The position numbers and the translations under genes are program-made. Source: a bacterium (lineage in GTDB: Archaea > Micrarchaeota > Micrarchaeia > Micrarchaeales > CABMGC01). From it: 64,000 bases of DNA. Below are positions 3,656-62,051 of this stretch, in pieces; position 1 is the first letter of the stretch, and each line of letters starts with the position of its first letter. Under the pieces are notes generated by a model. It was not told where the DNA came from. It did not search any database and saw only the letters and a program-made list of their open reading frames with translations. The DNA lies in contig JAKBPE010000002.1 of the NCBI GenBank assembly GCA_021829835.1, positions 21,498-85,497 of the forward strand. The letters are read 5' to 3'.

Positions 3656-6600
3656 ATGATGCGAAAGCTGCAGATAGCAATGGAATTCATGCTGGTATTC
3701 CTATTTGTAACTACAATATTCATCTTTTTTTTCTCATTAATCTCTTCAAGGGCATCATCGCTCTTCGGCCAGAACGCATATACCCAAACCCAGCAGCTGG
3801 CCCAGCAGATAGCGCATAGTATCAATACTGCATATAACGGGGGCAATGGCTATGTCTCCAACACAATTCTGGAATCAGGGTTTGGCATTAATAATTTCAA
3901 TATATCCATACTAAGGAACGGTGAGGTAATAGTCACTGCAAACCAGATATACCAAAAGATACGTTCGATTTCCTTTTCACAGTCAAGAAATCTGTATATG
4001 GCCAATACCCTACCTTCAAATTACATAACCACTCAGAATTTCTTCGGTTTGATCTGCGTCGACATATCCTGTCCTGAAACCGGAAACTATCCAAGTTCGA
4101 TAACTCTTTCAACTGAGAGCACAAGCGTCGCAAAATTCAACGGTGTAAACAGCCGCATTGTCGCAGGCAGCACAAATCTTCCTGTCGGCTCTTCTCCAAG
4201 ATCTCTCTTTTCATGGATATATCTGACTGGTAACGGTATAGGTTCTTCTTCCTATGGTTCTGTAATACAGGAATACGGATATCCATTTTCAACATCTGGT
4301 CTATCTGAATTATATGTATATCACGGCACCCTCGGTTTTTCAGCCGGAGGAGAGAGCTTCATAAGCAGCCTTGCTGTGCCTATTGGAAAATGGAGCTTTG
4401 TCGGTTATGCTTATCAATCGGGAAGTACAAGCATCACTCTTTATCTTAATGGAAACAGCCAGACCGGAAGCCTGAGCGGAGGAGCCGCTCTCTCCACTCC
4501 CACAGGCACAAGTTCGGAAATAGGCGCTGAAGGAAACACAATAAACAGTGGATACTTCAACGGATCCATAGCAAATATACAGCTATATAACACCTTCCTG
4601 AGTTCAAATCAGGAACTCCAGCTATTCAACCAGGGCATTATGGGTTCCGGAGTTTCAACGCAAAACATGGTGGGCTGGTGGAAGCTTGCGGGAAATGCAG
4701 AAGATTATAGCGGAAACAACAATACTGGAACTATCTACGGCCAGCTAATCTTCCCTACCGTATCGGAATCAACTGTCAAGGTTCTGGGACAGTACGGCAA
4801 TCCAATCGCAAACAGCATAACCGGCTTTTCATCAACCTTAGGAAGTATAAATAATATCTCCTTTTCCTCGAATTATACCAACGTGAATGGTATAGCATAC
4901 GAAATCTTCAATCAGAACCTTACAAACGGGCCAAACACAATAAATGTCACCACCTATCCTGGAAACGCAAAAGAAGAGAAGAATCTTACTGGCTGGTGGC
5001 CTCTGGTTAATGGAATGGTCAAAACAACTGTTATCAAAACCAGTTACTTTTCAAATGCAATACAAAGTGCAAACTCAGAAAATCCAGGAGTTGTGCTTCC
5101 TCCTAACATAGAGTACTATGTTCCCATAACCATAACCAATTATCCTTTAAGCGAAGTCAAGCCCAATTCACAGATAGCAGTGACTATAAATGCACTCAAC
5201 TACCAGAATTATTATACGTGCAATCTCAACAATGCGGAATTCTTCTATGCTAACACTGGAAAAGTGGTTCCAAGCTGGCTTGAAGGCAATTATACAAATG
5301 AAACGAATGCAAATGCCATGTGTACATCTGCTTCATCCCGAGGCGCGCTTGTAAACTCAGGAACAATACTATACTGGATAAACATAGGAAACAGCGCCGC
5401 AACGGGCAATCTTGGAAACATATATCTGGGATGGGCAGGAAATGCTCTCTCCCCATCAAATAACCTTATGAACGGTGTCACCACCGGAGAAGCGCCAGAG
5501 CTAACGTGTCCAAATCCCGCAGTCACTGCCAACTGTCCAACCTATGCGGAATATGACAACGGAAAAAACATCTTCAATTTTTACAGCAACTTTGCAGGAA
5601 CAACACTCCCTTCAGATTGGAAGGATGTAAACGGTGTAGGATATGTGGTTGACAACGGAATACAGATCACAAGCCTTTCTAATTCATATTCCTCAATAAA
5701 TGCAACAGAACCTGTTTTTACGCAGGGAACTGTAATGGATGCCCTGACTAAATTTTCGCCTTCGTGGGATGCTAATTATGAATTCGGAGGGATAGGAACC
5801 GGCGGAATGGCCTCTGCAAACGTGCTTATGATTTATGGAAACGACCAAGGAACTGGATCACTTTCTCCCGAGTTCTACACAGGAGTCAGCGGCGGCGATC
5901 TTATAATAACTAATTATCTCTACCCTCCAACTGCAAATGCACCGCAACTTCTTACAATGGTATACAATGCAAGTGTTCCTTTCGCCGGTCCTTATGATAC
6001 CTGGGTAATGGAGAATTATACTGATCCGTTCAGTTACACATATATTTACCCTACAGGCTTCCCGCTCTTCCCTGCTGTGGTCGGAACTTATTATGGGGCA
6101 CAACCTCCAACTGACCAAAATACCACATGGGTAAGGATCAGAAATAATCCGCCAGGAGGCGTTATGCCTACCGTGCAGGTTGGTGGCGTAAACTATCTAT
6201 TATCTACAAACACTATATTATACGATCTCAGCAACAATGCCAACAACGGTTTTGGCAGAAATGTTACCTTTCCATACTCTCTAGCTGAAATGAATGGTGT
6301 CGGATTCGCTCCATCAAGTTTTAGTGGAAATACAGAAGAAATCAATATCACAATCTCCTCTTCTTCATCTTCGTTATACATGAATCCGGGAAGCACGGGA
6401 ATGAGTATATTCTTATGGTTTATGCCTAACGAATCCGAATCCGCATTAACCTCCAATTCTGCAACATTAATAGGCACAAACGGAGCTTCCTGCGGATACA
6501 GGCTCTGGTTTTCAGGAGCCAATTCCCTAGAAGCTTCAGACAACTGCGGAGATGGCGTTTCATTCCAGCATGTTTTCAACAGTGGCGCATGGTACAATCT

Positions 6601-6865
6601 CGTGGTAACTGTCAATAATACCTATTATGAACGATACTACATAGATGGCATATACGCAGGAGGAGGCCAATCTACAAAATGGATAAGTTCCAACACCTGG
6701 AACAAATTATGCATAGCTTCCGATTGCGGCTCTGCATACTTTAAGGGATCTATATTCAATCTGCAGTTGTACAACACTACCCTAAATACCACTGACATAT
6801 ACCAGCTCTATACCGCAGGATTCAAACTCGAAAACAGCACCACATCATTTACACTGCAGAATTGA
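3656..6865 (+). CDS. Large pilin-like surface protein or adhesin with two LamG-like domains and a DUF2341-like domain
   Basis: N-terminus MMRKLQIAMEFMLVFLFVTTIFIFFF carries the QxAxEF pilin-type motif plus a hydrophobic helix. There are two LamG-type end motifs: FNGSIANIQLYNTFLSSNQELQLFNQG and FKGSIFNLQLYNTTLNTTDIYQLYTAG. The segment YYVPITITNY...NAEFFYANTGKVVPSWLEG is DUF2341-like. Many N-x-S/T sequons. Confidence 0.7.
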   Translation: MMRKLQIAMEFMLVFLFVTTIFIFFFSLISSRASSLFGQNAYTQTQQLAQQIAHSINTAYNGGNGYVSNTILESGFGINNFNISILRNGEVIVTANQIYQKIRSISFSQSRNLYMANTLPSNYITTQNFFGLICVDISCPETGNYPSSITLSTESTSVAKFNGVNSRIVAGSTNLPVGSSPRSLFSWIYLTGNGIGSSSYGSVIQEYGYPFSTSGLSELYVYHGTLGFSAGGESFISSLAVPIGKWSFVGYAYQSGSTSITLYLNGNSQTGSLSGGAALSTPTGTSSEIGAEGNTINSGYFNGSIANIQLYNTFLSSNQELQLFNQGIMGSGVSTQNMVGWWKLAGNAEDYSGNNNTGTIYGQLIFPTVSESTVKVLGQYGNPIANSITGFSSTLGSINNISFSSNYTNVNGIAYEIFNQNLTNGPNTINVTTYPGNAKEEKNLTGWWPLVNGMVKTTVIKTSYFSNAIQSANSENPGVVLPPNIEYYVPITITNYPLSEVKPNSQIAVTINALNYQNYYTCNLNNAEFFYANTGKVVPSWLEGNYTNETNANAMCTSASSRGALVNSGTILYWINIGNSAATGNLGNIYLGWAGNALSPSNNLMNGVTTGEAPELTCPNPAVTANCPTYAEYDNGKNIFNFYSNFAGTTLPSDWKDVNGVGYVVDNGIQITSLSNSYSSINATEPVFTQGTVMDALTKFSPSWDANYEFGGIGTGGMASANVLMIYGNDQGTGSLSPEFYTGVSGGDLIITNYLYPPTANAPQLLTMVYNASVPFAGPYDTWVMENYTDPFSYTYIYPTGFPLFPAVVGTYYGAQPPTDQNTTWVRIRNNPPGGVMPTVQVGGVNYLLSTNTILYDLSNNANNGFGRNVTFPYSLAEMNGVGFAPSSFSGNTEEINITISSSSSSLYMNPGSTGMSIFLWFMPNESESALTSNSATLIGTNGASCGYRLWFSGANSLEASDNCGDGVSFQHVFNSGAWYNLVVTVNNTYYERYYIDGIYAGGGQSTKWISSNTWNKLCIASDCGSAYFKGSIFNLQLYNTTLNTTDIYQLYTAGFKLENSTTSFTLQN

Positions 6866-6912: not shown

Positions 6913-7959
6913 TCAACGTGAAGGCTGCTGCTGCGTAGCACAATGAATTGCTCCGAATCCTTCCACAAGCCCTCTGCAGTCTATGCCCACTATATTTCTG
7001 CTTGTGAATAATTCTTTAAGTATGTTTATAGCCTTCCCATCACTCTCTACAGCGAATGTTGGCACAAGGACTGATTTGTTTGAAATATAAAAATTCATGT
7101 AACTTGCAGGCAATCTCATTCCATTCTTCTCTATCTTTCCAGGCATTGGCATCTTTATCACATTCAACCTTCTGCCATCCTGGTCTTCAGAATTCTGAAG
7201 AATCTTGAAATTTTTATCAAGAGCTTCATAATTTACATCACTGCTATCTTCTTCATACGCACATAATACCGTATTTCTAGAAACAAATCTGGCTATATCG
7301 TCAACGTGTCCGTCAGTATCGTCTCCTTCAAGTCCTCTGCCCAACCAGATAACGCTAAGCGCACCAAGATAGCTTCTGAGGAAACCCTCTATCTTTCCCT
7401 TGCTTAATTCGGGATTTCTATTTTTATTAAGAAGGCATTGTTCTGTAGTGAGAAATGTGCCAATTCCATTTGTATCTATGGAACCTCCTTCAAGCACTAT
7501 CGGAACCTTGAATCCTTTAAATTCTTTAAGAGGCATCTTCTCAGGAACATGGGTATCATCTGCCATGCCTTCATACTTCATGCCCCATGCATTGAACTTC
7601 CAGTGTGTATAAGCTATGTCTATCCTTCTGATATCACTTCTCTTTATGAATATCGGGCCATAATCCCTTATCCAGACATCTGTTGTAGGTATGATGTGAA
7701 AATCTATGTTTTCTTTTACGCACTCTATAGAACTTAACATCTCTGTAACTCGCGTTTTCTCATTCTCACTATCAACAAGTATCCCGACTCTCTCCCCTTT
7801 AGAAAGTTCTCCAATTATTTTCAGATAAGTTCTTTCTACTTCAGCAAGAACATCTCCTCTAAATGATTCCTGGTTTTTAGGCCAGGAAATCCATGTAGCA
7901 TCATGCCTCTCCCATTCAGCAGGCATTACATATCCCAGTTCAAAAGGCGTTTTGTCCAT
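6913..7959 (-). CDS. aguA: Agmatine deiminase
   Basis: 348 aa with PAEWE near the N-terminus, WIRDYGP, and the C-terminal catalytic-Cys motif GAIHCATQQQP typical of agmatine deiminase (Porphyromonas-type PAD family). Confidence 0.9.
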   Translation of the reverse strand: MDKTPFELGYVMPAEWERHDATWISWPKNQESFRGDVLAEVERTYLKIIGELSKGERVGILVDSENEKTRVTEMLSSIECVKENIDFHIIPTTDVWIRDYGPIFIKRSDIRRIDIAYTHWKFNAWGMKYEGMADDTHVPEKMPLKEFKGFKVPIVLEGGSIDTNGIGTFLTTEQCLLNKNRNPELSKGKIEGFLRSYLGALSVIWLGRGLEGDDTDGHVDDIARFVSRNTVLCAYEEDSSDVNYEALDKNFKILQNSEDQDGRRLNVIKMPMPGKIEKNGMRLPASYMNFYISNKSVLVPTFAVESDGKAINILKELFTSRNIVGIDCRGLVEGFGAIHCATQQQPSR

Positions 7960-7969
7960 TTTTATATCC

Positions 7970-8860
7970 TCAATCCAAGAATCTCTGAGTTATCTCCTTA
8001 TATGAATCTATACGCCTATCCCTGAGAAAAGGCCATCCTCTCCTTGTGCTTTCAACCAATCCCATATCACAATCAGCAATGAGGATCTCCTCACCTTCGT
8101 TGCCTGCATCTGCTATCTTCTCTCCAAAAGGGCCTGAGACAAAAGATGAACCCCAGAAGGCTATGTTGCCTTCTCTTCCCACTCTGTTCACCGCAGCTAC
8201 AAATATTCCGTTAGCTATGCTATGCGATCTCTGTATGGTCTTCCAGGCTGAAAGCTGGATCTCTTTTTTATCTCTGCTGTCATCAGGGGACCATCCTATC
8301 GCAGTAGGATAAAATATTATCTTGGCGCCTTTCAATGCGGTTATCCTTGCAGCCTCAGGAAACCACTGGTCCCAGCATATCAGAACCCCTATATCTCCAT
8401 ACTCTGTTTTGAATGATATAAACTTCTCCCCAGGAGCAAAGTAAAGCTTCTCATGATAGTCTGCAGGGTCTTCGGGGATATGCATCTTCCTGTAAACTCC
8501 AATAATCTTCCCGGACGAATCTATCACTACTGCAGAATTATTGTAGACTCCTTCCGCTCTCTTTTCGAAGATGCCTGCTATTATCACCACTTTGTTGTTC
8601 CTTGCAGCTTCTGAAAGTTTTTTTGTAGTATCTCCAGGTATCTTTTCTGCAAGGCCGAACAATTCTTCATTCTGTTCCTGGCAGAAATATCTACTGCTGA
8701 AAAGTTCAGGAAGGCAGATTATCTTAGCGCCTCTGCCTGCTGCCTTTCCTATCATCTCTACTGCTTTTGCAGTGTTGGCTTCAATGTCATCAGACATAGA
8801 CATCTGGATCAGTCCAATTCTTATGACATTTTTCTCTTCTCCTATTTTTTTATCTGCCAT
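7970..8860 (-). CDS. aguB: N-carbamoylputrescine amidase (nitrilase superfamily)
   Basis: 296 aa with CN-hydrolase motifs (ICLPELF, YRKMHIP, VLICWDQWFPE). It lies directly downstream of aguA in the same orientation. Confidence 0.85.
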   Translation of the reverse strand: MADKKIGEEKNVIRIGLIQMSMSDDIEANTAKAVEMIGKAAGRGAKIICLPELFSSRYFCQEQNEELFGLAEKIPGDTTKKLSEAARNNKVVIIAGIFEKRAEGVYNNSAVVIDSSGKIIGVYRKMHIPEDPADYHEKLYFAPGEKFISFKTEYGDIGVLICWDQWFPEAARITALKGAKIIFYPTAIGWSPDDSRDKKEIQLSAWKTIQRSHSIANGIFVAAVNRVGREGNIAFWGSSFVSGPFGEKIADAGNEGEEILIADCDMGLVESTRRGWPFLRDRRIDSYKEITQRFLD

Positions 8861-10384: not shown

Positions 10385-10620
10385 TGTGGTGTGCGAATGG
10401 CTTACGGTCTGAATAAGACTGAGGAAGCTCTCTCCATGCTAAGCCTGTATGGTCTAAGGCCTAATTCGGTACAGAAACGCACGGCTACGGTTTAAAACGA
10501 TGACGCTACGAGTTGCCGGTGCCGATGAAACGCGCCGATGCACAGGCGATGTGCATGCAAGGCAGAATGCCGCTTAGTCGAATGCCATCTAAAACAGAAG
10601 AGGGGCTATGGCACACCACA
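10385..10620 (+). ncRNA. rnpB: RNase P RNA, compact form (candidate)
   Basis: GC-rich island in an AT-rich intergenic region. A 10-bp terminal helix forms between UGUGGUGUGC and GCACACCACA (P1). AUGGCU pairs with GGCUAU (P2), and a CGGUCU-GAAUA-AGACUG hairpin fits P3. A CR-I-like GAGGAAGCUCUC sits 5' and a CR-V-like ACAGAAGAGGGGCUAUGG sits 3', with CUCUC/GAGGG able to form P4. Confidence 0.6.
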
Positions 10621-15341: not shown

Positions 15342-18300
15342 TTGGAAAATATACTTAACAATCCATCTGTAAAAATAGGGCTTATACTGTCTCTGATGTT
15401 TTTAGTAGTTGTAAATGCACAGGTATCAGCTACATTGAATTCAATCCCTGCCTTTCCTGCAAATATAGACGTAGGCCAGAATGTTATCTTTACAGCCAAC
15501 ATCTTAGGCACAACTGCAACTCCATATACATACAACTTTCTGATATACAACAGCATAACTGGCGCTGTAGTTGCTAACCAGTTATACACCGGAGTCTCTT
15601 CAACTTCAAACACATTCGTCTGGCTTCCTCTGGCTCCGAATTCTCTCTTAGAAGCAAATGTCATAATCTCAGATTCCGGCACAAACACTGTAAACAGCAT
15701 AATGCTCACAGGCCTGAATGTGAATCCATCACTGGAAGTATTCCCAATAAATATATCTTCTCAGGAATCAGCCTCAAACTCAATACCCAATATGGCCAAT
15801 GTAATACTGGATTCAGGCGAAAGCGCATATGTGAACCTTCTCTGGTCAGGAGGCACTCCGCCATATACTGCAAAAACCTACACTTCCAATTCCTTATCGT
15901 GCAGCTCATCATCCACTCTGCTTAACACATCTACAACCAGCAACACCTTCCTGCATCTAAAAGTATCTCCTACAGCAACCACCTCCTACTGCTACACTGT
16001 TACAGATTCGGCAGCCAATCCTGTAACTGGTTCCAATACTCCACAACCAGCAAAAATAGTAGTGAATCCAGCACTCGCTTCTGTAATAGTATCTTCATCA
16101 AGTTCAAATATAAATTCAGGAGAACAAGTCACCCTGAATGCTTCATGGACTGGTGGCACTCCTCCATTCGCAGCATATCTCTACGAATCTGGCACTTCCC
16201 AATGCGGCTCAACATTCAAACTTCTCCAGAAGAAGAGCGGGATATCATCTAACACGGTCTCATTTAATGCTATCCCTTCATCAAGCGGATATTACTGCGT
16301 TTCAGTTTCAGACAGTGCAGTTGATCCTTCTGTCGCATATATAATTAACAGCACGAAGCTTAATGAGCCTTCAGGAATTGCCTTATCCAGATCAGGAGGA
16401 AATCTATATGTGGCAAATTATTACAATCATCTTACTGTTCTTTCTAATGTTACCATAATAAACATATCAACCAAGGCAGCAGTAGGCGTTGTCTCGGATC
16501 CATTTGCGCCAACCGCAAACGTATTCCATCCTAACGGGGTCGAATTTTCCCCATCGGGCGCATATGCATACATAAGCAATTCTGGCGGTTCAAATATTTT
16601 TATTATGAATACCTCTACAAATACTATCATCAGGTCCATAAACGAGTCTGTAATCAATGGTACATTTCCATTTCCAGAGTCGACAGCGTTCAACAACGCC
16701 GGAACATACGCATACGAAGCAAATTATGGGAATAGCACAGTAAGCATAATAAATACCTCTGCAAACACTATAACTCATACTATATTTGGAGGGTTATTAT
16801 CAAGTCCATTCAGCATTAAGATTGCGCCATCAGGAGCATACGCCTACGTTTCAAATTTAGGTTCATCAAATGTAGTGGTTTTAAACACATCCAGCAACAC
16901 CATTACCGCATCACTTCTAGCAGTATTCAACTCACCACGAGGAATAGTCTTCTCACCATCAGGTGCTTATGCTTACATCCCAAACAACAATGCAGGCATA
17001 TCAGTAATAAACACAACAACAAGAGCAAATTACACTTACCTCTCTGCAACCTCTTATACTCTTTCTGGTCCGAATGGCATTGCCCTATCCCCATCAGGCA
17101 AAACCGCATATGTAACATATGGAACTAATAACATAATGGTGCTTAATACAGGGATTAAAAGCAATGAGACGGCCTCGTCTGTTCACGTCCAAGTGAACTC
17201 ACCTCCTGCACCTTCTTCAGCGCCGCAAATATACGATGTTAAGATAAACGACAGTGTCTCAAACGCATCATCTTCAAATGTTCCTGTTGTGACAGCATAC
17301 CTGCTTTCCTCTTCTGGAAAGCTAATCTCCACAAATCAGTACATGCAGAACCAGATGCCTGCCATAATCTCAATAACAAGCCCAGAGTACGTGGTATTTT
17401 CATTTGCATGCAGTTTTACTTCGGGAGGCATGTCATACAGCTTTGCAGATAATGTATATGGGATCGGCATGACCAATGGCTGCGGAAGCAACTACACCCT
17501 GGTAGGCGGCACAAGAACAATCATCTATTCAGAAACGGCAAAGACTGAAAACGTTACAAAAACTTCCAATGTTACAGTCACAGTAACTAAAGAAAAACCT
17601 ACTCTTGAATTTGTAAAGGAGTGTTCAAATTTCCAATACAACGCTTCCATTTCCAACACCTGCTCAACAGAAGCTGAAATCTCTACTCCTGAAAATCAGC
17701 TTAAAGCCCAACTATATCTAAACAATCTCCTAGTAGGCAATACTTCCACAATTATAACTGATAATGTAAGTCTTCCAGGAAACTACACCTTCCGCTTTGC
17801 AACCCAAGGAAATGGGAATTATACCAATGCAAGCATATCCTACACATTTGCTATAACTGCTCCTATAAACATTTCAAAACAGAGAAACAGTACGCCACCA
17901 CAACCACATGTACTTACAATAAATCTCCACAATCAAGCATATGCAAGCTTAAACAATCTTTCCGTATCAAGCAACACTACACTCGAAATAAATTCGACTA
18001 ATGAGAAAGCTTTCATACGCATATCTTCAGAAAATCAGAGTGGTCCGTTCTCATTGAAGATAATCAATGCAACAAATATCTCAGCGGCAACTCCCGCAGG
18101 AATGAAGGTAATATCTGCAATCAACATCACCCTGAATTCAAATTCATCCAACAGTATGACTCTGAATATGACAATGGGTTACTCCTGCAATAACGGATTC
18201 AAATCTGTAAGCCCATACATACTTAAAAACTCTGTCTGGACTCCTATTACCAATTACCATATAAACAACTCCACATGCCAGATATCATTTGAGATACCTT

Positions 18301-18458
18301 CCGATCCAGTAGTAGGCCTCCTCGCAGTTCTTCCTTCACATACTGTGAACAATCCAAGCGGTTCAGTTGTCCTCTGGGTAGTTATTCTAGTAGTTATTAT
18401 AATAATTCTGGCAATCATCTACCTTTTGAAAAGGCCGCAAAGAAGAAAGTTCAAGTAA
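15342..18458 (+). CDS. Surface protein with YVTN-type beta-propeller repeats and a C-terminal membrane anchor
   Basis: Signal peptide. Repeated roughly 40-aa units of the type PSGAYAYVSNLGSSNVVVLNTSSNTI. Ig-like Ser/Thr-rich regions and many sequons. C-terminal TM helix VVLWVVILVVIIIILAIIYLL followed by KRPQRRKFK. Confidence 0.75.
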   Translation: MENILNNPSVKIGLILSLMFLVVVNAQVSATLNSIPAFPANIDVGQNVIFTANILGTTATPYTYNFLIYNSITGAVVANQLYTGVSSTSNTFVWLPLAPNSLLEANVIISDSGTNTVNSIMLTGLNVNPSLEVFPINISSQESASNSIPNMANVILDSGESAYVNLLWSGGTPPYTAKTYTSNSLSCSSSSTLLNTSTTSNTFLHLKVSPTATTSYCYTVTDSAANPVTGSNTPQPAKIVVNPALASVIVSSSSSNINSGEQVTLNASWTGGTPPFAAYLYESGTSQCGSTFKLLQKKSGISSNTVSFNAIPSSSGYYCVSVSDSAVDPSVAYIINSTKLNEPSGIALSRSGGNLYVANYYNHLTVLSNVTIINISTKAAVGVVSDPFAPTANVFHPNGVEFSPSGAYAYISNSGGSNIFIMNTSTNTIIRSINESVINGTFPFPESTAFNNAGTYAYEANYGNSTVSIINTSANTITHTIFGGLLSSPFSIKIAPSGAYAYVSNLGSSNVVVLNTSSNTITASLLAVFNSPRGIVFSPSGAYAYIPNNNAGISVINTTTRANYTYLSATSYTLSGPNGIALSPSGKTAYVTYGTNNIMVLNTGIKSNETASSVHVQVNSPPAPSSAPQIYDVKINDSVSNASSSNVPVVTAYLLSSSGKLISTNQYMQNQMPAIISITSPEYVVFSFACSFTSGGMSYSFADNVYGIGMTNGCGSNYTLVGGTRTIIYSETAKTENVTKTSNVTVTVTKEKPTLEFVKECSNFQYNASISNTCSTEAEISTPENQLKAQLYLNNLLVGNTSTIITDNVSLPGNYTFRFATQGNGNYTNASISYTFAITAPINISKQRNSTPPQPHVLTINLHNQAYASLNNLSVSSNTTLEINSTNEKAFIRISSENQSGPFSLKIINATNISAATPAGMKVISAINITLNSNSSNSMTLNMTMGYSCNNGFKSVSPYILKNSVWTPITNYHINNSTCQISFEIPSDPVVGLLAVLPSHTVNNPSGSVVLWVVILVVIIIILAIIYLLKRPQRRKFK

Positions 18459-19944: not shown

Positions 19945-20542
19945 CTTTCTGGGTGTGTCAGACTACGCCTGACATTATAATCTCTCAGGAAAAATATATA
20001 AATCTACTACCTAAGTATAACTAACAGTAGTAAGGTATTTATTCTTATACTAAAATATATAATTGCAGAAATGCGAGCCAACGCTATATAAGAACGGCAG
20101 GGGCAGGTCAGGTCTGTATCTCTTTCTGGGTGAAAACACGGGTAGTGGAAACTATGGGACTGGGAAAAATGAAAAGCTGCGCAAAGAGCTTCTGGTGTCA
20201 CTTATGCATAGATATGACGAGATAATATCTACTATAAGTGAATATGAGCGGTCTTGGCCTAAAGCAGAACTTTCGGCAAAGGCAGATATGGTACTTGATT
20301 CTATATCTGACCTGCTAAGGCAAAGATCTCTCAGGGAAGTTACGGCCTCATTGGAGATGTCAGGAATAATAGGACATGAAGAGGCCGCATACTTATGCGG
20401 AAAGAAGAAAAAGCAGCCAATCATAAAGGAGGCGGAAGCCTCCTCCAGTCCCCACTACCTGTGTTTTCTCACACAGTATAAATTTATGGCATCTCTAAAT
20501 CGTCTAAAATCTTTTCCAGAATCAGAGAAACAAATGCACCAA

Positions 20543-21163
20543 TCATCTTTTTGCAATTGCAAGGGATACGATATCCTCAAAAAAGATATGGGTGATCTTC
20601 CTTCCTACAATATCAAGGCCCATATCTCCAATATTCTTGGAAAGGTCTTCAAGATCACCAAAAGAGCTTGCATTCAATATTATAATGCCCTCATCATCCA
20701 AGTGCTCTCTTGCTTCTGAAAGAAATCTTACTGAAAGCTCTATCCCCCTCTCTCCACCGCTCCATGGATTATATTCAATTTCTTCACCTTTCTTCTCATT
20801 TCTGAGGTAAGGCGCATTGAAGATTATCATATTGAATCTCATGTCTTTAGGCATCTCAGAAAAGAGATCGCTCTTAATGAATTCGGCATCTACATCTAAT
20901 TTCTTTCTATTCAAATCAAAGTTTTTCGCTGCAAGCCTCAATGCATTTTCATTTATATCCGAAAAAATAACCTTGCCTCCTTCCATAAGGGAAGCCGCTA
21001 CCAGTCCCAGGATTCCGGATCCTGTTCCGATATCTATTATGTATGGTTGTGTCTTATTCAACAATGGCAGATACTCTGCTATCATCTGTGCAGAAAGAAA
21101 GGAATCGTCAGAAGGCCTGTATACCTCTTCTTCTGTAGATATCTCCATGCCCATGTATTCCAT
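20543..21163 (-). CDS. HemK/Mtq2-type N5-glutamine (release factor) methyltransferase
   Basis: VYRPSDDSFL N-terminal motif, SAM-binding IDIGTGSGILG, and the catalytic NPPY variant FNAPY. Confidence 0.8.
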   Translation of the reverse strand: MEYMGMEISTEEEVYRPSDDSFLSAQMIAEYLPLLNKTQPYIIDIGTGSGILGLVAASLMEGGKVIFSDINENALRLAAKNFDLNRKKLDVDAEFIKSDLFSEMPKDMRFNMIIFNAPYLRNEKKGEEIEYNPWSGGERGIELSVRFLSEAREHLDDEGIIILNASSFGDLEDLSKNIGDMGLDIVGRKITHIFFEDIVSLAIAKR

Positions 21164-21308
21164 GCTTATGGTTTGCCAACTGAAATATAATAATCTGCAT
21201 CCTGACAGGCAATATTGTTCGGCAGCACAGAATACTACATATATGTAATACTTATATATCTGGAAAATCAGATTATATTAGATGGCAACTGCCTCTACGG
21301 TATAATGA

Positions 21309-21920
21309 ATGAAAAAAGACAAGATTTTAGAATTAAACCAAACCCTGAGAACTGCTTTAGGCGAAGCATTAAGGGACAACAGAAATATGGCTGAACAAGT
21401 AAGACAACTCGAAGAGGAGATAAAAAAACTCAAAAGGATCTCAACTACTGACTTTATGACCGGATTAGGAAACAAAATGGCATTCGATAAAACACTGGAA
21501 TCCTCAATAGAAGATTATCTTGCAACAGGCAAAAAATTTACCCTTGCAATAATAGATCTAAATGATCTTAAGAAAGCAAACGACATTGGAGGGCATGAAA
21601 AAGGAGACAGTTTAATAAAATCGGCAGCAGGGTTAATACATCATACTATAAGAAACAATGACTATGCCTTTAGGATAGGTGGAGACGAATTCGCAATAAT
21701 TCTTTCAGGAACAGAAAACGGGAAACCTTTCGAAAAAAGACTTCATTCCTTGGCAGAAAAATCAAACATTAGCCTTTCAATTGGCTGGGCAAGCACTTCA
21801 CATGTAAAGAAATCATGCACATCTCAAAGCATTATAAAAGAAGTCCTATTTGAACTTGCAGATTCCAACATGTATTTGCAGAAATCATTGTACAAGAAGA
21901 AAGTTCTGCCTAGGCAATAA
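21309..21920 (+). CDS. GGDEF-domain protein (diguanylate cyclase-like) with an N-terminal coiled coil
   Basis: TDFMTGLGNKMAFD, IIDLNDLKKANDIGGHEKGD and RNNDYAFRIGGDEFAIILSG are present. That gives an RxxD five residues upstream of an intact GGDEF (nt 21678-21692). LSIGWAS and ADSNMYLQK complete the family pattern. Confidence 0.8.
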   Translation: MKKDKILELNQTLRTALGEALRDNRNMAEQVRQLEEEIKKLKRISTTDFMTGLGNKMAFDKTLESSIEDYLATGKKFTLAIIDLNDLKKANDIGGHEKGDSLIKSAAGLIHHTIRNNDYAFRIGGDEFAIILSGTENGKPFEKRLHSLAEKSNISLSIGWASTSHVKKSCTSQSIIKEVLFELADSNMYLQKSLYKKKVLPRQ

Positions 21921-22002
21921 TAAATCATCTATGATCTATTTTTATCTTTTTCCTGCCAATCCATACTGCTAAAATTATGCTAAAGGTAATGAACTGGACG
22001 AT

Positions 22003-22578
22003 ATGCCGGCATGGATGATTGCAGAGGAAATACTTTCCAAGGCAGAACGAATACTTATGGAATCCGCGCTTGAACTTCTGCGCAGTCAGATAAAATCCGG
22101 TACTATAAAGGTCGATGGAACATTTGCCCCTTCTTCAGAGGCAAGCGGCGAAGCCGAACGCGACCTATTTCTTATGGAAAAGCTTATCGCAGATGAAGAA
22201 AATCTCTATCACAGATACCAAAACCTTATATCATCTGTAGAAAGCGGAAAGGAGCAAGATATGCATATAGTTGAGCGGATGGAAGAGATAAAGAAATTTC
22301 TACTATCGGTCTCGCAGATATCATTGACTGCAAAGAATGCAAAAGTATTCCGTGAATGGTTTTCAGATGCAGGCAGTAAAATGTCCATAAAGGACCCGGC
22401 AGAAATACTCGATTCGACCGCCATGCTGAGGCAAGAGCGCGCATCTGCCTTGGAATTCTTTGTGGGAAATAAGAAATTTATTAATTCTGAGATATTAATG
22501 CCTGAGGAAATAGAGATACTGAAAAAGGCATATTCTCTCCTGGGAAAAGAAAATTTCAACAAGGTGCAAAAATTATGA
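22003..22578 (+). CDS. Hypothetical helical protein
   Basis: 191-aa ORF with no recognisable motif. Its stop overlaps the start of nfo (ATGA), which implies translational coupling. Confidence 0.5.
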   Translation: MPAWMIAEEILSKAERILMESALELLRSQIKSGTIKVDGTFAPSSEASGEAERDLFLMEKLIADEENLYHRYQNLISSVESGKEQDMHIVERMEEIKKFLLSVSQISLTAKNAKVFREWFSDAGSKMSIKDPAEILDSTAMLRQERASALEFFVGNKKFINSEILMPEEIEILKKAYSLLGKENFNKVQKL

Positions 22579-23384
22579 GGCTAGGTTATCATGTATCAAC
22601 TGCCCAGAGAATGGATCTTGCATTTGACAGGGCATTGGCATTAGGCTGCAATACAATGCAGATATTCCTAAGCAATCCACGCGGCTGGGAAATAAAAGAA
22701 ATATCCAAAGAGATAAAAGAAGCATTCCTTGCCAAATCCGAATCTAAAAGGGTTAGCCCTGTAATTGCACATATGCCATATCTTCCTAATTTATCCTCTA
22801 CGAACAATTCAACTTATTCAAAATCTATAGAAAATCTAAATAAAACGCTTATGTTGTGTTCAGAGCTAAACGTAGAATATTTAGTTACTCATCTTGGCAG
22901 CCATCTTGGGAAAGGAAGCGATATCGGAATCAACAATGTCATAAATGCAATTAATAAAGCAGAAATAAGCGATGATGTAACCCTTCTTCTTGAAAACACC
23001 TCAGGAAGCAAAAATAGCGTAGGCTCAACCTTGGAGGAACTTGTAAAAATACGCGAAGGCACAGAGAAAAAAATAGGCTTTTGCCTTGATACCTGTCATC
23101 TCTACGCTGCTGGTTATGACATAACTAAAAAAGAGGTATTGGAGGAGATAGACAAAAAACTAGGTTTCAAAGACGTTCATATCTTCCATCTAAACGATTC
23201 CAAATTCCAGCTGGGCTCCCATCTAGACCGGCATGAAAATATAGGTATGGGCTATATAGGCAGAGAAGGATTTTCAAAATTCTTTTCATACAGGAAAATA
23301 TTAGACAAGCCATTCATCATGGAGACTCCTCAAGAATCAAAGGAAGAACTATTACTTGTAAAACAGTTATCTGGAAATCGCTAA
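22575..23384 (+). CDS. nfo: Endonuclease IV (AP endonuclease family 2)
   Basis: 269 aa with a TIM-barrel AP endonuclease 2 pattern: GCNTMQIFLSNPRGW, HMPYLPNL, VTHLGSH, LLENTSG, CLDTCHLYAAGYD, FHLNDS. Confidence 0.9.
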   Translation: MRLGYHVSTAQRMDLAFDRALALGCNTMQIFLSNPRGWEIKEISKEIKEAFLAKSESKRVSPVIAHMPYLPNLSSTNNSTYSKSIENLNKTLMLCSELNVEYLVTHLGSHLGKGSDIGINNVINAINKAEISDDVTLLLENTSGSKNSVGSTLEELVKIREGTEKKIGFCLDTCHLYAAGYDITKKEVLEEIDKKLGFKDVHIFHLNDSKFQLGSHLDRHENIGMGYIGREGFSKFFSYRKILDKPFIMETPQESKEELLLVKQLSGNR

Positions 23385-23458: not shown

Positions 23459-25051
23459 ATGATATTCGAAAAAACAAAATATCCAATAACCATAATCAAA
23501 AAATTAGAACTTAAAAGAATTTATCATGGCGATTATTCAACATGGAAATGGAAAAAACCATTCTTTCTGAAAAGATTTATGTTGAATGGAAGAATGAATC
23601 CCCATGTTGTAATAATCGGAGAAAGCGGCGGCGGTAAGTCAAATGCATCAAGGGTAATCATAAAAGAGATTGCAGATACAGGGGCAGGGCTTCTCATACT
23701 TGATCCTAATGAAGATTATCTTGGGCTTGCAGACAAAATAGGCGCCGATGTCTATGATGCTTCACGTTCAAAGGTAAACTTTTTAGATTTGGACGGAATG
23801 GATGAAGAAGAACGCATTGGAGAGACAACATCTATACTATCAAAGCGATTAAGGCTTGGATATGTACAATCTTCATTGCTAAAGAGATGCATTGGATATA
23901 CCTACTGGGTAAGCAAGCCTAAAAACAGGATTCCCACAGTATCAGATTTGATGCTTACCTTGAAGCGTTTTGAGGCAAAAGCCGAAGGATCAGAATCAAG
24001 AACACTTTCACTGCTAATCGAGCGCATATCTCTGATAAACTCAAGAAAGCACGGACGGCCTATAAGCATTGAGAAAATAATGGGATCCAGGAGCATATTT
24101 TTGCTGGGCAGTATGCATACTGAAGAAGAACAATCAATATATATGGAAGCCTTGCTCCGAAAGATATATTCATCAATGCTTAGCAGCGGATACAGCCGCA
24201 AGCCATTCTATATAGTGATAGACGAAGCAAGAAAGATAAGCGGCAGTGTAATTCTAGGAAGGCTTGCAGCAGAAGGCAGAAAGTATGGCCTTGGCATAGT
24301 AGCGATATCACAGAAGGCAGAGGAGATAGACGGAAAAGTCATGAGCAACTCCTCTACTATAATCTCCTTTTATCAGCGGGAGCCTTCGGAATTGCATTAC
24401 ATCTCAAATTACATCTCAGGCGGTTCGGAATCCGGAAGGCTTGTTTCGGTCAAATCAGCCATAAGAAACCTAGGTGTTGGCAAAGCTGTAATATTGGATT
24501 CACGGTATAGAGAGCCTATAATGGTAAAGTTTGAGTCTTCCGATATTGGAAATTTCTCTCTAAAGTATTACATTGAAAACCTGTCTTACAATGCCATTGG
24601 AAAAAATCTCCTTGTAGAAAATCTTCATAGAATGAATATCAGCGATATAGATATTCAGATTGCTGTATCTACTCTAATTTCAGAAAAAATACTTTACGAA
24701 TATAATGACTGGTATATATCAAATCCAAGAAATTCTCCAGAGCATGATATCACAGTTTATCGCATATCTGAAAAACTTAAAGTAAATGGAATATCTAATG
24801 AAATATACAATTCCTCATATGGTCCTGATCTAATCATATACTCAAAAGGCAGACGGATTGCTATGGAATATGAAACCGGAAAGAAAAACCTAAACGATGT
24901 CATTCACATGCTGGAATACAGAAAAAAGAGTTACCCTGAAATAATTCTTGCTGTAAACGACCTGCATTACCCCAGATACTCCGCAATTCCCGGCATTACT
25001 GTATTGAGAATATCCGATTTCTTTGCAAGTAATCCAGAAGAATATCTATGA
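23459..25051 (+). CDS. HerA/FtsK-superfamily (DUF87-like) ATPase fused to a C-terminal wHTH-like and PD-(D/E)xK-like nuclease module
   Basis: Walker A IIGESGGGKSNAS, LILDPNEDY, Walker B FYIVIDEARK and RKYGLGIVAISQK are present. The C-terminal roughly 105 aa contain GPDLIIYSKGRRIAMEYETGKK, a PD...E-x-K-like pattern. Confidence 0.75.
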   Translation: MIFEKTKYPITIIKKLELKRIYHGDYSTWKWKKPFFLKRFMLNGRMNPHVVIIGESGGGKSNASRVIIKEIADTGAGLLILDPNEDYLGLADKIGADVYDASRSKVNFLDLDGMDEEERIGETTSILSKRLRLGYVQSSLLKRCIGYTYWVSKPKNRIPTVSDLMLTLKRFEAKAEGSESRTLSLLIERISLINSRKHGRPISIEKIMGSRSIFLLGSMHTEEEQSIYMEALLRKIYSSMLSSGYSRKPFYIVIDEARKISGSVILGRLAAEGRKYGLGIVAISQKAEEIDGKVMSNSSTIISFYQREPSELHYISNYISGGSESGRLVSVKSAIRNLGVGKAVILDSRYREPIMVKFESSDIGNFSLKYYIENLSYNAIGKNLLVENLHRMNISDIDIQIAVSTLISEKILYEYNDWYISNPRNSPEHDITVYRISEKLKVNGISNEIYNSSYGPDLIIYSKGRRIAMEYETGKKNLNDVIHMLEYRKKSYPEIILAVNDLHYPRYSAIPGITVLRISDFFASNPEEYL

Positions 25052-36025: not shown

Positions 36026-36451
36026 ATGTTGGGACCACATTTGACATTGGATTTGACAGGATGTGACGAAAGCGCACTTGCGTCTAAGGAACTTGTTTTC
36101 AAGGTACTTGACGAGATGCCTGCCCTGATAGGCATGCACAAGATTACTGCACCGCAGATCATACCGTATGATGGCAAGCCTGACTCTTTTGATAAAGGTG
36201 GGATTTCCGCCTTTGTGCTTATTGCGGAATCGCATATAACCATACACACCTGGAAGGAACAGAAGCATGCTTCGATAGACATCTTCTCATGCAAGGACTT
36301 CGATGTTGAAAAGGCTGTCCTCTATCTCTCATCTGTTTTCAAGCCAAAGAAAATAGAGAAGAATCTTATGATGAGAGGAAGGCACTTTGTCAAAGACGTC
36401 AGAAAGGTAAGAGTGGTAGTTGCTAGGGAGAGGACAACTCTCTCAAAGTAA
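36026..36451 (+). CDS. speH: Pyruvoyl-dependent S-adenosylmethionine decarboxylase family proenzyme (AdoMetDC, or possibly the arginine decarboxylase paralogue)
   Basis: Self-processing site motif LIAESHITIHTW, and the roughly 140-aa size typical of class 1 SpeH. GAGG lies 8 nt upstream of the ATG. Confidence 0.85.
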   Translation: MLGPHLTLDLTGCDESALASKELVFKVLDEMPALIGMHKITAPQIIPYDGKPDSFDKGGISAFVLIAESHITIHTWKEQKHASIDIFSCKDFDVEKAVLYLSSVFKPKKIEKNLMMRGRHFVKDVRKVRVVVARERTTLSK

Positions 36452-61945: not shown

Positions 61946-62051
61946 TCCCGTTGGAGAGAGTTGAACTCCCAACCTATCGGTATCTTCCTTGGAAGCTTGT
62001 GTCCAAGATTTCAGGCTACAGCCGATCGCTCTGCCATTGAGCTACAACGGG
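61946..62051 (-). tRNA. tRNA-Tyr (anticodon GUA) with a roughly 34-nt intron at the canonical 37/38 position
   Basis: Manual fold of the reverse complement. Acceptor CCCGTTG/CAACGGG, D-arm TAGCTCAATGGCAGAGC, and anticodon stem ATCGG/CCGAT with loop CTGTAG interrupted by the intron. T-arm GGGAG-TTCAACT-CTCTC. Confidence 0.85.

Follow-up and report, generated by a model that had tools for sequence, protein, structure and literature searches.

Several diguanylate cyclases carry a coiled coil directly in front of their GGDEF domain, and we compare with them a 203-amino-acid GGDEF protein encoded in 64,000 nucleotides of Micrarchaeota DNA (assembly GCA_021829835.1, contig JAKBPE010000002.1, positions 21,498 to 85,497; hereafter the window, with positions counted from its first letter). 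The engineered fusion GCN4-WspR (Protein Data Bank (PDB) 3i5c), reported to be highly active (PMC8041772), and WspR (3bre) have a parallel coiled coil immediately before a GGDEF domain with an RxxD I-site, as is predicted for the window protein, and the alignment spans the zipper through the GGDEF motif. The window protein differs from GCN4-WspR in being a natural gene of an archaeal host, with an identity of about 27-30%, and from WspR in having no REC domain. SiaD of Pseudomonas aeruginosa (7e6g, in complex with its activator SiaC) is likewise small, with a stalk helix, a GGDEF domain and no sensor domain, and it provides a precedent for control through a partner that binds the stalk. The window protein reaches only 78.9 bits with NF038266 (cutoff 290) and is therefore not an orthologue of SiaD, and no SiaA-, SiaB- or SiaC-like partner (PP2C-type phosphatase, kinase or SiaC-like protein) was found among the window open reading frames (ORFs) scanned. 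DgcR, PadC and Caulobacter DgcB (6ttr) share the GGDEF fold and an axxdexx heptad running into a DxLT hinge, but they have an N-terminal input domain (REC, phytochrome or others) that switches the register of the coiled coil, whereas the window protein has none.

GGDEF proteins have been reported from archaeal genomes before, the phylum Micrarchaeota included (PMC5847659; PMC8646023). In a 2018 census the sole GGDEF protein of a finished archaeal genome was CAJ37382 of Methanocella arvoryzae, and two 'Ca. Micrarchaeum acidiphilum' genomes held a REC domain with an inactive GGDEF domain, for which contamination was left open (PMC5847659). Braun et al. (2021) obtained more than 300 archaeal BLAST hits, many of them in Asgard and DPANN metagenome-assembled genomes (MAGs); neither in Haloferax nor in Sulfolobus did they find cyclic di-GMP (c-di-GMP) (PMC8646023). 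In the words of Römling (2022), GGDEF proteins of archaea 'need to be confirmed in archaeal contigs' (PMC10086821). A preliminary description of the window, which had called archaeal occurrences very rare, thus somewhat overstated that rarity, given the more than 300 putative matches (PMC8646023), although these have been regarded as unverified for contamination (PMC5847659; PMC10086821). Among the papers searched we found no title or abstract tying Micrarchaeota to c-di-GMP or diguanylate cyclases, and one paper gives numbers of diguanylate cyclase genes for ultra-small MAGs but no description of this protein. Judged by the published descriptions, the M. arvoryzae protein is REC-PAS-PocR-GGDEF-HD-GYP whereas the window protein consists of stalk and GGDEF domain only, and the 'Ca. 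Micrarchaeum acidiphilum' protein differs from it in having REC and lacking an intact active site. Contamination, left open in the earlier reports, is excluded here by synteny across lineages.

We propose that the window protein is probably a diguanylate cyclase of minimal design, native to the DPANN archaeon (Candidatus Micrarchaeota) that carries it and acting as a constitutive, coiled-coil homodimeric, product-inhibited c-di-GMP synthase. Here we show its domain identity, motif integrity, fold, archaeal context and synteny, and the selection acting on its gene. GGDEF matches in DPANN MAGs were already known; what is new is that archaeal provenance, catalytic integrity and vertical inheritance can all be demonstrated at one locus.

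Fold, stalk and active site of the GGDEF protein

The gene and the parts of its product are as follows.

21309-21920, plus strand: stalk-GGDEF protein, predicted diguanylate cyclase, 203 amino acids (PF00990, TIGR00254, AlphaFold2, Foldseek)
Residues 2-46: coiled-coil helix
Residues D48-T51: DxMT hinge
Residues 46-199: GGDEF domain
Residues R115-D118: I-site
Residues 124-128: GGDEF motif

The ORF and the motifs quoted in the preliminary description (IIDLNDLKKANDIGGHEKGD, RNND and GGDEF) are all present with correct spacing: IIDLNDLKKANDIGGHEKGD covers residues 81-100, and RNND at 115-118 is followed by the five residues YAFRI and then by GGDEF at 124-128. The profile search with PF00990 proposed there gave a significant match (Pfam, E 3.5e-26, 92.4 bits against a cutoff of 23.8) over residues 46-193 and profile positions 2-156 of 161, and TIGR00254 matched with 93.9 bits (cutoff 37.4). 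With the NCBIfam equivalog models (DgcN, SiaD, PleD and others) the protein stayed below cutoff throughout, so that we regard it as a member of the GGDEF family and not as an orthologue of any named bacterial enzyme.

The best sequence match in the PDB was the GCN4-WspR fusion (E 3.7e-17), with other diguanylate cyclases next. When the protein is aligned with WspR, the patterns IDxxxxKxxND..GH..GD, RxxD (RSSD in WspR) and GG[DE]EF are all in register, and D83, K88, N91 and D100 coincide with their WspR counterparts; these four we take to be the equivalents of PleD D327, K332, N335 and D344. Syntenic orthologues occur in three further lineages, with identities of 84% (the cluster of P0002 and P0128), 72% (P0003, found on more than 24 contigs) and 41% (loci L058, at 1784-2395, and L059), and even the last has the same length of 203 amino acids and keeps all catalytic, hinge and I-site residues. 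In the alignment of the protein with 61 homologues, D83, N91, G95, R122, G124, G125, E127 and F128 are invariant and K88 is nearly so. The GGDEF motif, R115 and D118 are unchanged in all orthologues, the 41%-identical one included, and D100 is the same in every archaeal orthologue. The base-specificity position, D100 within GHEKGD, is therefore Asp throughout, and not the Ser of Hypr enzymes; according to a rule reportedly set out by Hallberg et al. in 2016, Asp at this position marks GTP-specific enzymes that make c-di-GMP, and Ser marks Hypr synthases of cyclic GMP-AMP (cGAMP). An RxxD I-site five residues before GGDEF is typical of product-inhibited diguanylate cyclases, though not obligatory. 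With catalytic, guanine-binding and I-site residues all intact, the sequence is apparently that of an active cyclase.

An AlphaFold2 model built on the alignment with the 61 homologues (mean pLDDT, the predicted local distance difference test score, 95.3) has an unbroken helix at residues 2-46 followed by an alpha/beta GGDEF core. Foldseek searches with this model returned diguanylate cyclase GGDEF domains as all of the top 50 matches (E 2.6e-14 to 2.4e-10), led by PadC, SiaD, the coiled-coil and GGDEF structure of DgcB (6ttr) and WspR at E values of about 1e-13 to 1e-14 and including GCN4-WspR (3i5c). The best full-length superposition was that on SiaD (7e6g), with a template modelling (TM) score of 0.76 over 205 columns. 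Family match, WspR alignment and fold model together bear out the earlier reading of a canonical-looking GGDEF domain with an I-site.

That reading had also included a coiled coil and no sensor domain, and this holds as well: the helix starts at residue 2 with nothing before it, which leaves no room for a sensor, and no domain was found besides helix and GGDEF. The helix carries a hydrophobic heptad repeat (I6, L13, A20, M27, L34 and L41), and its last heptad, L41-K-R-I44-S45-T-T-D48, fits the axxdexx-DxLT junction, with D48-F-M-T51 as the hinge; the pattern axxdexx, with its e position three residues before the DxLT hinge, is that of coiled-coil-linked diguanylate cyclases (PMC8041772). Two orthologue clusters have an insertion of exactly seven residues in the stalk helix, as expected if the register of the coiled coil is being preserved.

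Predicted activity and selection

From these features we infer that the protein dimerises, makes c-di-GMP and is inhibited by this product; any physiological role is likewise inferred. Two copies of the protein would pair through their N-terminal helices (residues about 2-46) in a parallel coiled coil, and this pairing would bring the GGDEF domains together through the DxLT-type hinge. Each GGDEF domain would bind one GTP·Mg2+, with D83 and E127 holding the metal and N91 and D100 reading the guanine, and the dimer would condense two GTP into c-di-GMP, which may in turn inhibit synthesis by feedback when bound at the RxxD I-site. Lacking a sensor domain, the protein would have its output governed by its expression level and by product inhibition, and a partner bound to the stalk might contribute.

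The ratio of nonsynonymous to synonymous substitution rates (dN/dS) of the GGDEF gene is 0.33 in comparison with its 72%-identical orthologue, against 0.01-0.17 for neighbouring genes, and in the lineage of the 41%-identical orthologue the neighbours are 54-84% identical, which makes the GGDEF gene the fastest-evolving member of its block. Selection on the gene is purifying, but looser than on its neighbours.

Several points weigh against a native, working diguanylate cyclase. The faster evolution just described could mean relaxed constraint. Coiled-coil homodimerisation is suggested by helix periodicity and by analogy only, and diguanylate cyclase catalysis needs two GGDEF domains. A complete signalling module would include a degrading enzyme (EAL or HD-GYP) and a receptor (PilZ, MshEN, degenerate GGDEF or EAL, or a riboswitch), but about 60 window ORFs yielded no such domain and no second GGDEF domain (Pfam, E <= 0.001), and no c-di-GMP riboswitch was found in the window at Rfam gathering thresholds. 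According to a 2023 review, no archaeon has been found to contain c-di-GMP (PMC10249747). Finally, the single clade that the archaeal sequences form in a neighbour-joining tree of 80 GGDEF domains speaks for an old gene, but its bootstrap value is modest (116/200) and the comparison set was biased toward matches to this protein.

The GGDEF fold could instead serve another activity: the product might be cGAMP, c-di-AMP or a linear dinucleotide, the protein might be a receptor for GTP or c-di-GMP, or it might be in slow decay. Hypr GGDEF cGAMP synthases and the ATPase GGDEF domain of YybT are precedents, and both the lack of a canonical c-di-GMP partner in the window and the faster evolution of the gene relative to its neighbours fit such readings. 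However, the GTP-binding and catalytic residues are all present and invariant among orthologues, the specificity residue is not the Hypr Ser, and a dN/dS of 0.33 with invariant motifs argues against decay. We consider another activity of this kind unlikely, and a diguanylate cyclase the better account of the protein.

The chromosomal block, its inheritance and its archaeal provenance

The elements adjoining the GGDEF gene are the following.

20543-21163, minus strand: HemK/MTQ2-type methyltransferase (NF011529, TIGR00537), divergent from the GGDEF gene and its upstream neighbour in all orthologous loci
21252-21279, plus strand: two TATA-like A/T-rich elements, putative archaeal promoter (TTATATAT at 21252-21259, TTATATT at 21273-21279)
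21939-21951, plus strand: two T5 runs, TTTTTATCTTTTT, an oligo-T terminator-like tract 19-31 nt after the GGDEF stop codon
22003-22578, plus strand: ORF191, an all-helical protein of 191 amino acids from an uncharacterised Micrarchaeia-wide family; syntenic neighbour
22575-23384, plus strand: endonuclease IV, nfo (TIGR00587, 235 bits against a cutoff of 129.65; PF01261)

They belong to a longer block in the order HMG-CoA reductase, small ORF, methyltransferase (minus strand), GGDEF, ORF191, nfo, HerA-like ATPase, NUDIX (minus strand), aldo-keto reductase, K+ channel and Sua5, of which the part from the methyltransferase to the K+ channel is conserved across the 84%, 72% and 41% lineages. The TATA-like elements lie 30-57 nt upstream of the GGDEF start codon, inside a 145-bp divergent intergenic region, and the stretch GGAATACTTATATATCTG...GATTATAT is conserved in the loci with 72%-identical GGDEF proteins. 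Downstream, the TTTTTATCTTTTT tract is perfectly conserved in the orthologous locus L007 despite varying flanks. These signals suggest that the GGDEF gene is a monocistronic archaeal transcription unit, apart from ORF191 and nfo. A scan for bacterial (sigma-70) promoters and intrinsic terminators found nothing above shuffled expectation, as expected for an archaeon.

The preliminary description had raised a functional link between the GGDEF protein and ORF191, which it saw as translationally coupled to nfo. The gene at 22003-22578 is real and strongly constrained, with a dN/dS of 0.12 in comparison with the orthologue in locus L007; its stop codon overlaps the nfo start by 4 nt (aaattATGAgg). 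The link to the GGDEF protein is unsupported beyond local synteny. A profile search gathered 76 cluster representatives of the ORF191 family (P0141-P0216), most of about 170-200 amino acids and about a dozen of them shorter fragments; members of about 180-195 amino acids are helical with an N-terminal motif PAW..C.D.L, and several relatives are labelled Micrarchaeia or Micrarchaeaceae at NCBI. Sequence profiles found no relative of ORF191 in Pfam, NCBIfam, PADLOC or the PDB, and its AlphaFold2 model is all-helical, with one of five models confident and a best Foldseek E value of 0.2, which is nothing meaningful. PADLOC defence-system models matched neither the GGDEF protein nor ORF191 and gave only generic HerA and NUDIX similarities on neighbouring genes, so that a defence reading of the block is unsupported.

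GGDEF, ORF191 and nfo might nevertheless form one module, for example for c-di-GMP-regulated DNA repair with ORF191 as the receptor. The three genes are co-directional and adjacent in all four GGDEF-carrying lineages, and the 4-nt overlap joins ORF191 to nfo. Yet between GGDEF and ORF191 lie a spacer of 82 nt and a conserved oligo-T tract, ORF191 has no similarity to known c-di-GMP-binding domains or to Pfam or PDB entries, and three distant members of the Micrarchaeia-wide ORF191 family stand in unrelated contexts with neither GGDEF nor nfo adjoining. Moreover, ORF191 and GGDEF adjoin only within a clade whose entire 10-kb block, made up of unrelated housekeeping genes, is just as syntenic, so that at this divergence their adjacency carries little functional information. 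We regard such a module as very unlikely.

The same block bears on the age of the gene. The preliminary description had offered a recent horizontal acquisition as one explanation, in the sense of a gene taken up from a bacterium and not integrated into archaeal physiology. GGDEF domains are overwhelmingly bacterial, so an ultimate bacterial origin is likely, and the gene has the lowest GC content and the lowest GC content at third codon positions (GC3) of its local block (z about -1.7) together with the highest dN/dS. However, its codon-usage likelihood is typical (z +0.7), archaeal-type TATA-like and oligo-T elements are conserved around it, and outside the clade the best identity, in a collection of 5.8 billion proteins and in GTDB genomes, is about 38%, with no bacterial, plasmid or metagenomic homologue above that value. 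Plasmid-borne relatives in particular do not exceed about 37% identity, and we reject a plasmid origin. Since syntenic orthologues have diverged to 41% identity while their neighbours remain at 54-84%, the acquisition predates the split of these lineages. The idea of a recent acquisition is thus unsupported, and we consider it exceedingly unlikely. The simplest history read from these sequences is one ancient acquisition followed by vertical descent: the gene would have passed in a single event from bacteria to the ancestor of a Micrarchaeota clade of genus or family rank, and have been inherited vertically since then at a fixed chromosomal position.

Candidates for archaeal kin outside the clade were rejected. 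A metagenome contig scan with the archaeal GGDEF alignment drew bacterial loci through the generic pattern FR[IL]GGDEF, at identities of 45% or less and with archaeal neighbours at 0 of 80 loci. Nor did any of the nearest non-self matches, namely the REC-GGDEF proteins P0007, P0026 and P0033, the 345-amino-acid GGDEF protein P0005 and the short GGDEF proteins P0021 and P0025, come with an archaeal marker; for several of them the neighbouring genes are clearly bacterial (F-type ATP synthase, sigma-70 factors).

The flanks of the gene are archaeal, as the preliminary description had held. The window contains an archaeal RNase P RNA at 10385-10620 (Rfam), and archaeal markers stand on both sides of the GGDEF gene (ribosomal proteins S15/S13N, S3Ae, S24e and S19e, aIF5A and aIF6). 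The window further encodes a helicase of the Hel308 type, with its archaeal domain 4, and a presenilin-type signal-peptide peptidase, and a 106-nt tRNA match at 61946-62051 (minus strand), found by Rfam and not by ARAGORN, is consistent with an intron-containing archaeal tRNA. The tetranucleotide composition over 19-26 kb, a check suggested in the same description, is typical of the window (z -0.7 to +0.15), and the GC content of the GGDEF gene is mildly low (z -1.7). The identical GGDEF protein is present on 18 contigs from ENA, JGI and NCBI assemblies, one of them labelled 'Candidatus Micrarchaeota archaeon MAS1.bin37', and at the places shown for these contigs all neighbours that fit on the contig are present in unchanged order. 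MAGs with the gene are GCA_021804095.1, GCA_021835325.1, GCA_027354935.1, GCA_021845465.1 and GCA_027354775.1.

Archaeal flanks, independent assembly of the same block on dozens of contigs and native composition exclude mis-assembly and contamination as far as sequence data allow. A GGDEF gene brought in by bacterial contamination, or attached to archaeal DNA through a chimeric assembly, has practically no chance of being the explanation, even though the literature treats archaeal GGDEF/HD-GYP matches from MAGs as possible contamination (PMC5847659; bioRxiv 10.1101/2021.11.05.467447) and MAS1.bin37 is a mixed bin, because the gene lies mid-window between archaeal markers, recurs with the same neighbours on the 18 contigs, has 72% and 41% orthologues at the same position on further contigs, is native in composition and is bordered by intergenic regions that are both conserved with the loci of 72%-identical GGDEF proteins. 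The mixed bin itself (GCA_021804095.1) holds two syntenic versions of the block, L013 and L014, whose GGDEF proteins are 100% and 72% identical to that of the window; coverages of about 45x and 68x indicate that it mixes two related populations.

Further features of the window and meaning for archaeal c-di-GMP

Two other genes near the GGDEF gene have features of their own. The HerA/DUF87-type ATPase at 23459-25051 (530 amino acids) has its best NCBIfam similarities, at scores far below cutoff, to CedD and HerA. Its last 170 amino acids or so are a C-terminal extension without a Pfam match, in which a PD-(D/E)xK-like motif can be recognised by eye (GPDLII...IAMEYETGKK); the protein could be an ATPase-nuclease fusion. 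The 218-amino-acid ORF at 20063-20719 shares 177 nt with the convergent methyltransferase gene at the 3' end of the latter, has a counterpart of 149 amino acids in the 72% lineage, no family match and a dN/dS of 0.53, and is either a gene shorter than called or doubtful.

Mobile elements occur elsewhere. A TnpB ORF of IS200/IS605 type (OrfB_IS605 with a Cas12f1-like TNB domain) at 42132-43397 (plus strand), within 41536-44001, is flanked by ORFs at 41536-42030 and 43411-44001 (both on the minus strand) that match different parts of the MFS_1 profile, so that a major facilitator superfamily (MFS) transporter gene was apparently split by the element. An IS110-family transposase (38711-39715, minus strand) adjoins a 219-amino-acid ankyrin-repeat protein (37651-38310, minus strand); ankyrin repeats are unusual in archaea, and in a DPANN episymbiont this protein could have a bearing on how it interacts with its host. 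Two Ser/Thr/Asn-rich proteins of more than 1,000 amino acids at 3656-6865 and 15342-18458 look secreted or surface-exposed, one with Laminin_G_3 (concanavalin-like) domains and the other with NHL/lactonase beta-propeller repeats and a C-terminal transmembrane anchor, and are possible adhesins. An agmatine deiminase (PAD_porph) adjoins a CN_hydrolase, probably an N-carbamoylputrescine amidase, and an AdoMet decarboxylase is encoded elsewhere in the window (spans 6913-8860 and 36026-36451); the three suggest a route of polyamine synthesis in a reduced genome.

To return to the GGDEF protein, the other explanation offered in the preliminary description, an archaeal cyclic-dinucleotide signal not characterised before, is plausible, although no partner domain lies in the window. 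The predicted activity allows a further, more tentative proposal, which we find doubtful though worth stating: c-di-GMP may be a working second messenger in this Micrarchaeota clade, made by the sensor-less stalk-GGDEF enzyme and read by receptors unrelated to PilZ, EAL or HD-GYP. A possible role would be in the attachment of these episymbionts to their host archaeon or in exchange with it. If true, Archaea would have their first functional c-di-GMP system, one with a new set of effectors.

The locus itself is a genomic counter-example to the view of c-di-GMP as a bacterial messenger, in that an intact cyclase gene with no close bacterial donor lies in an archaeal chromosome. Because the protein is small (203 amino acids), soluble and easily expressed, it makes the question of archaeal c-di-GMP directly testable, and Micrarchaeota co-cultures are the place to seek c-di-GMP and its receptors. 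Being a natural combination of zipper and GGDEF domain, the protein would also provide a minimal model for the activation of diguanylate cyclases by a coiled coil.

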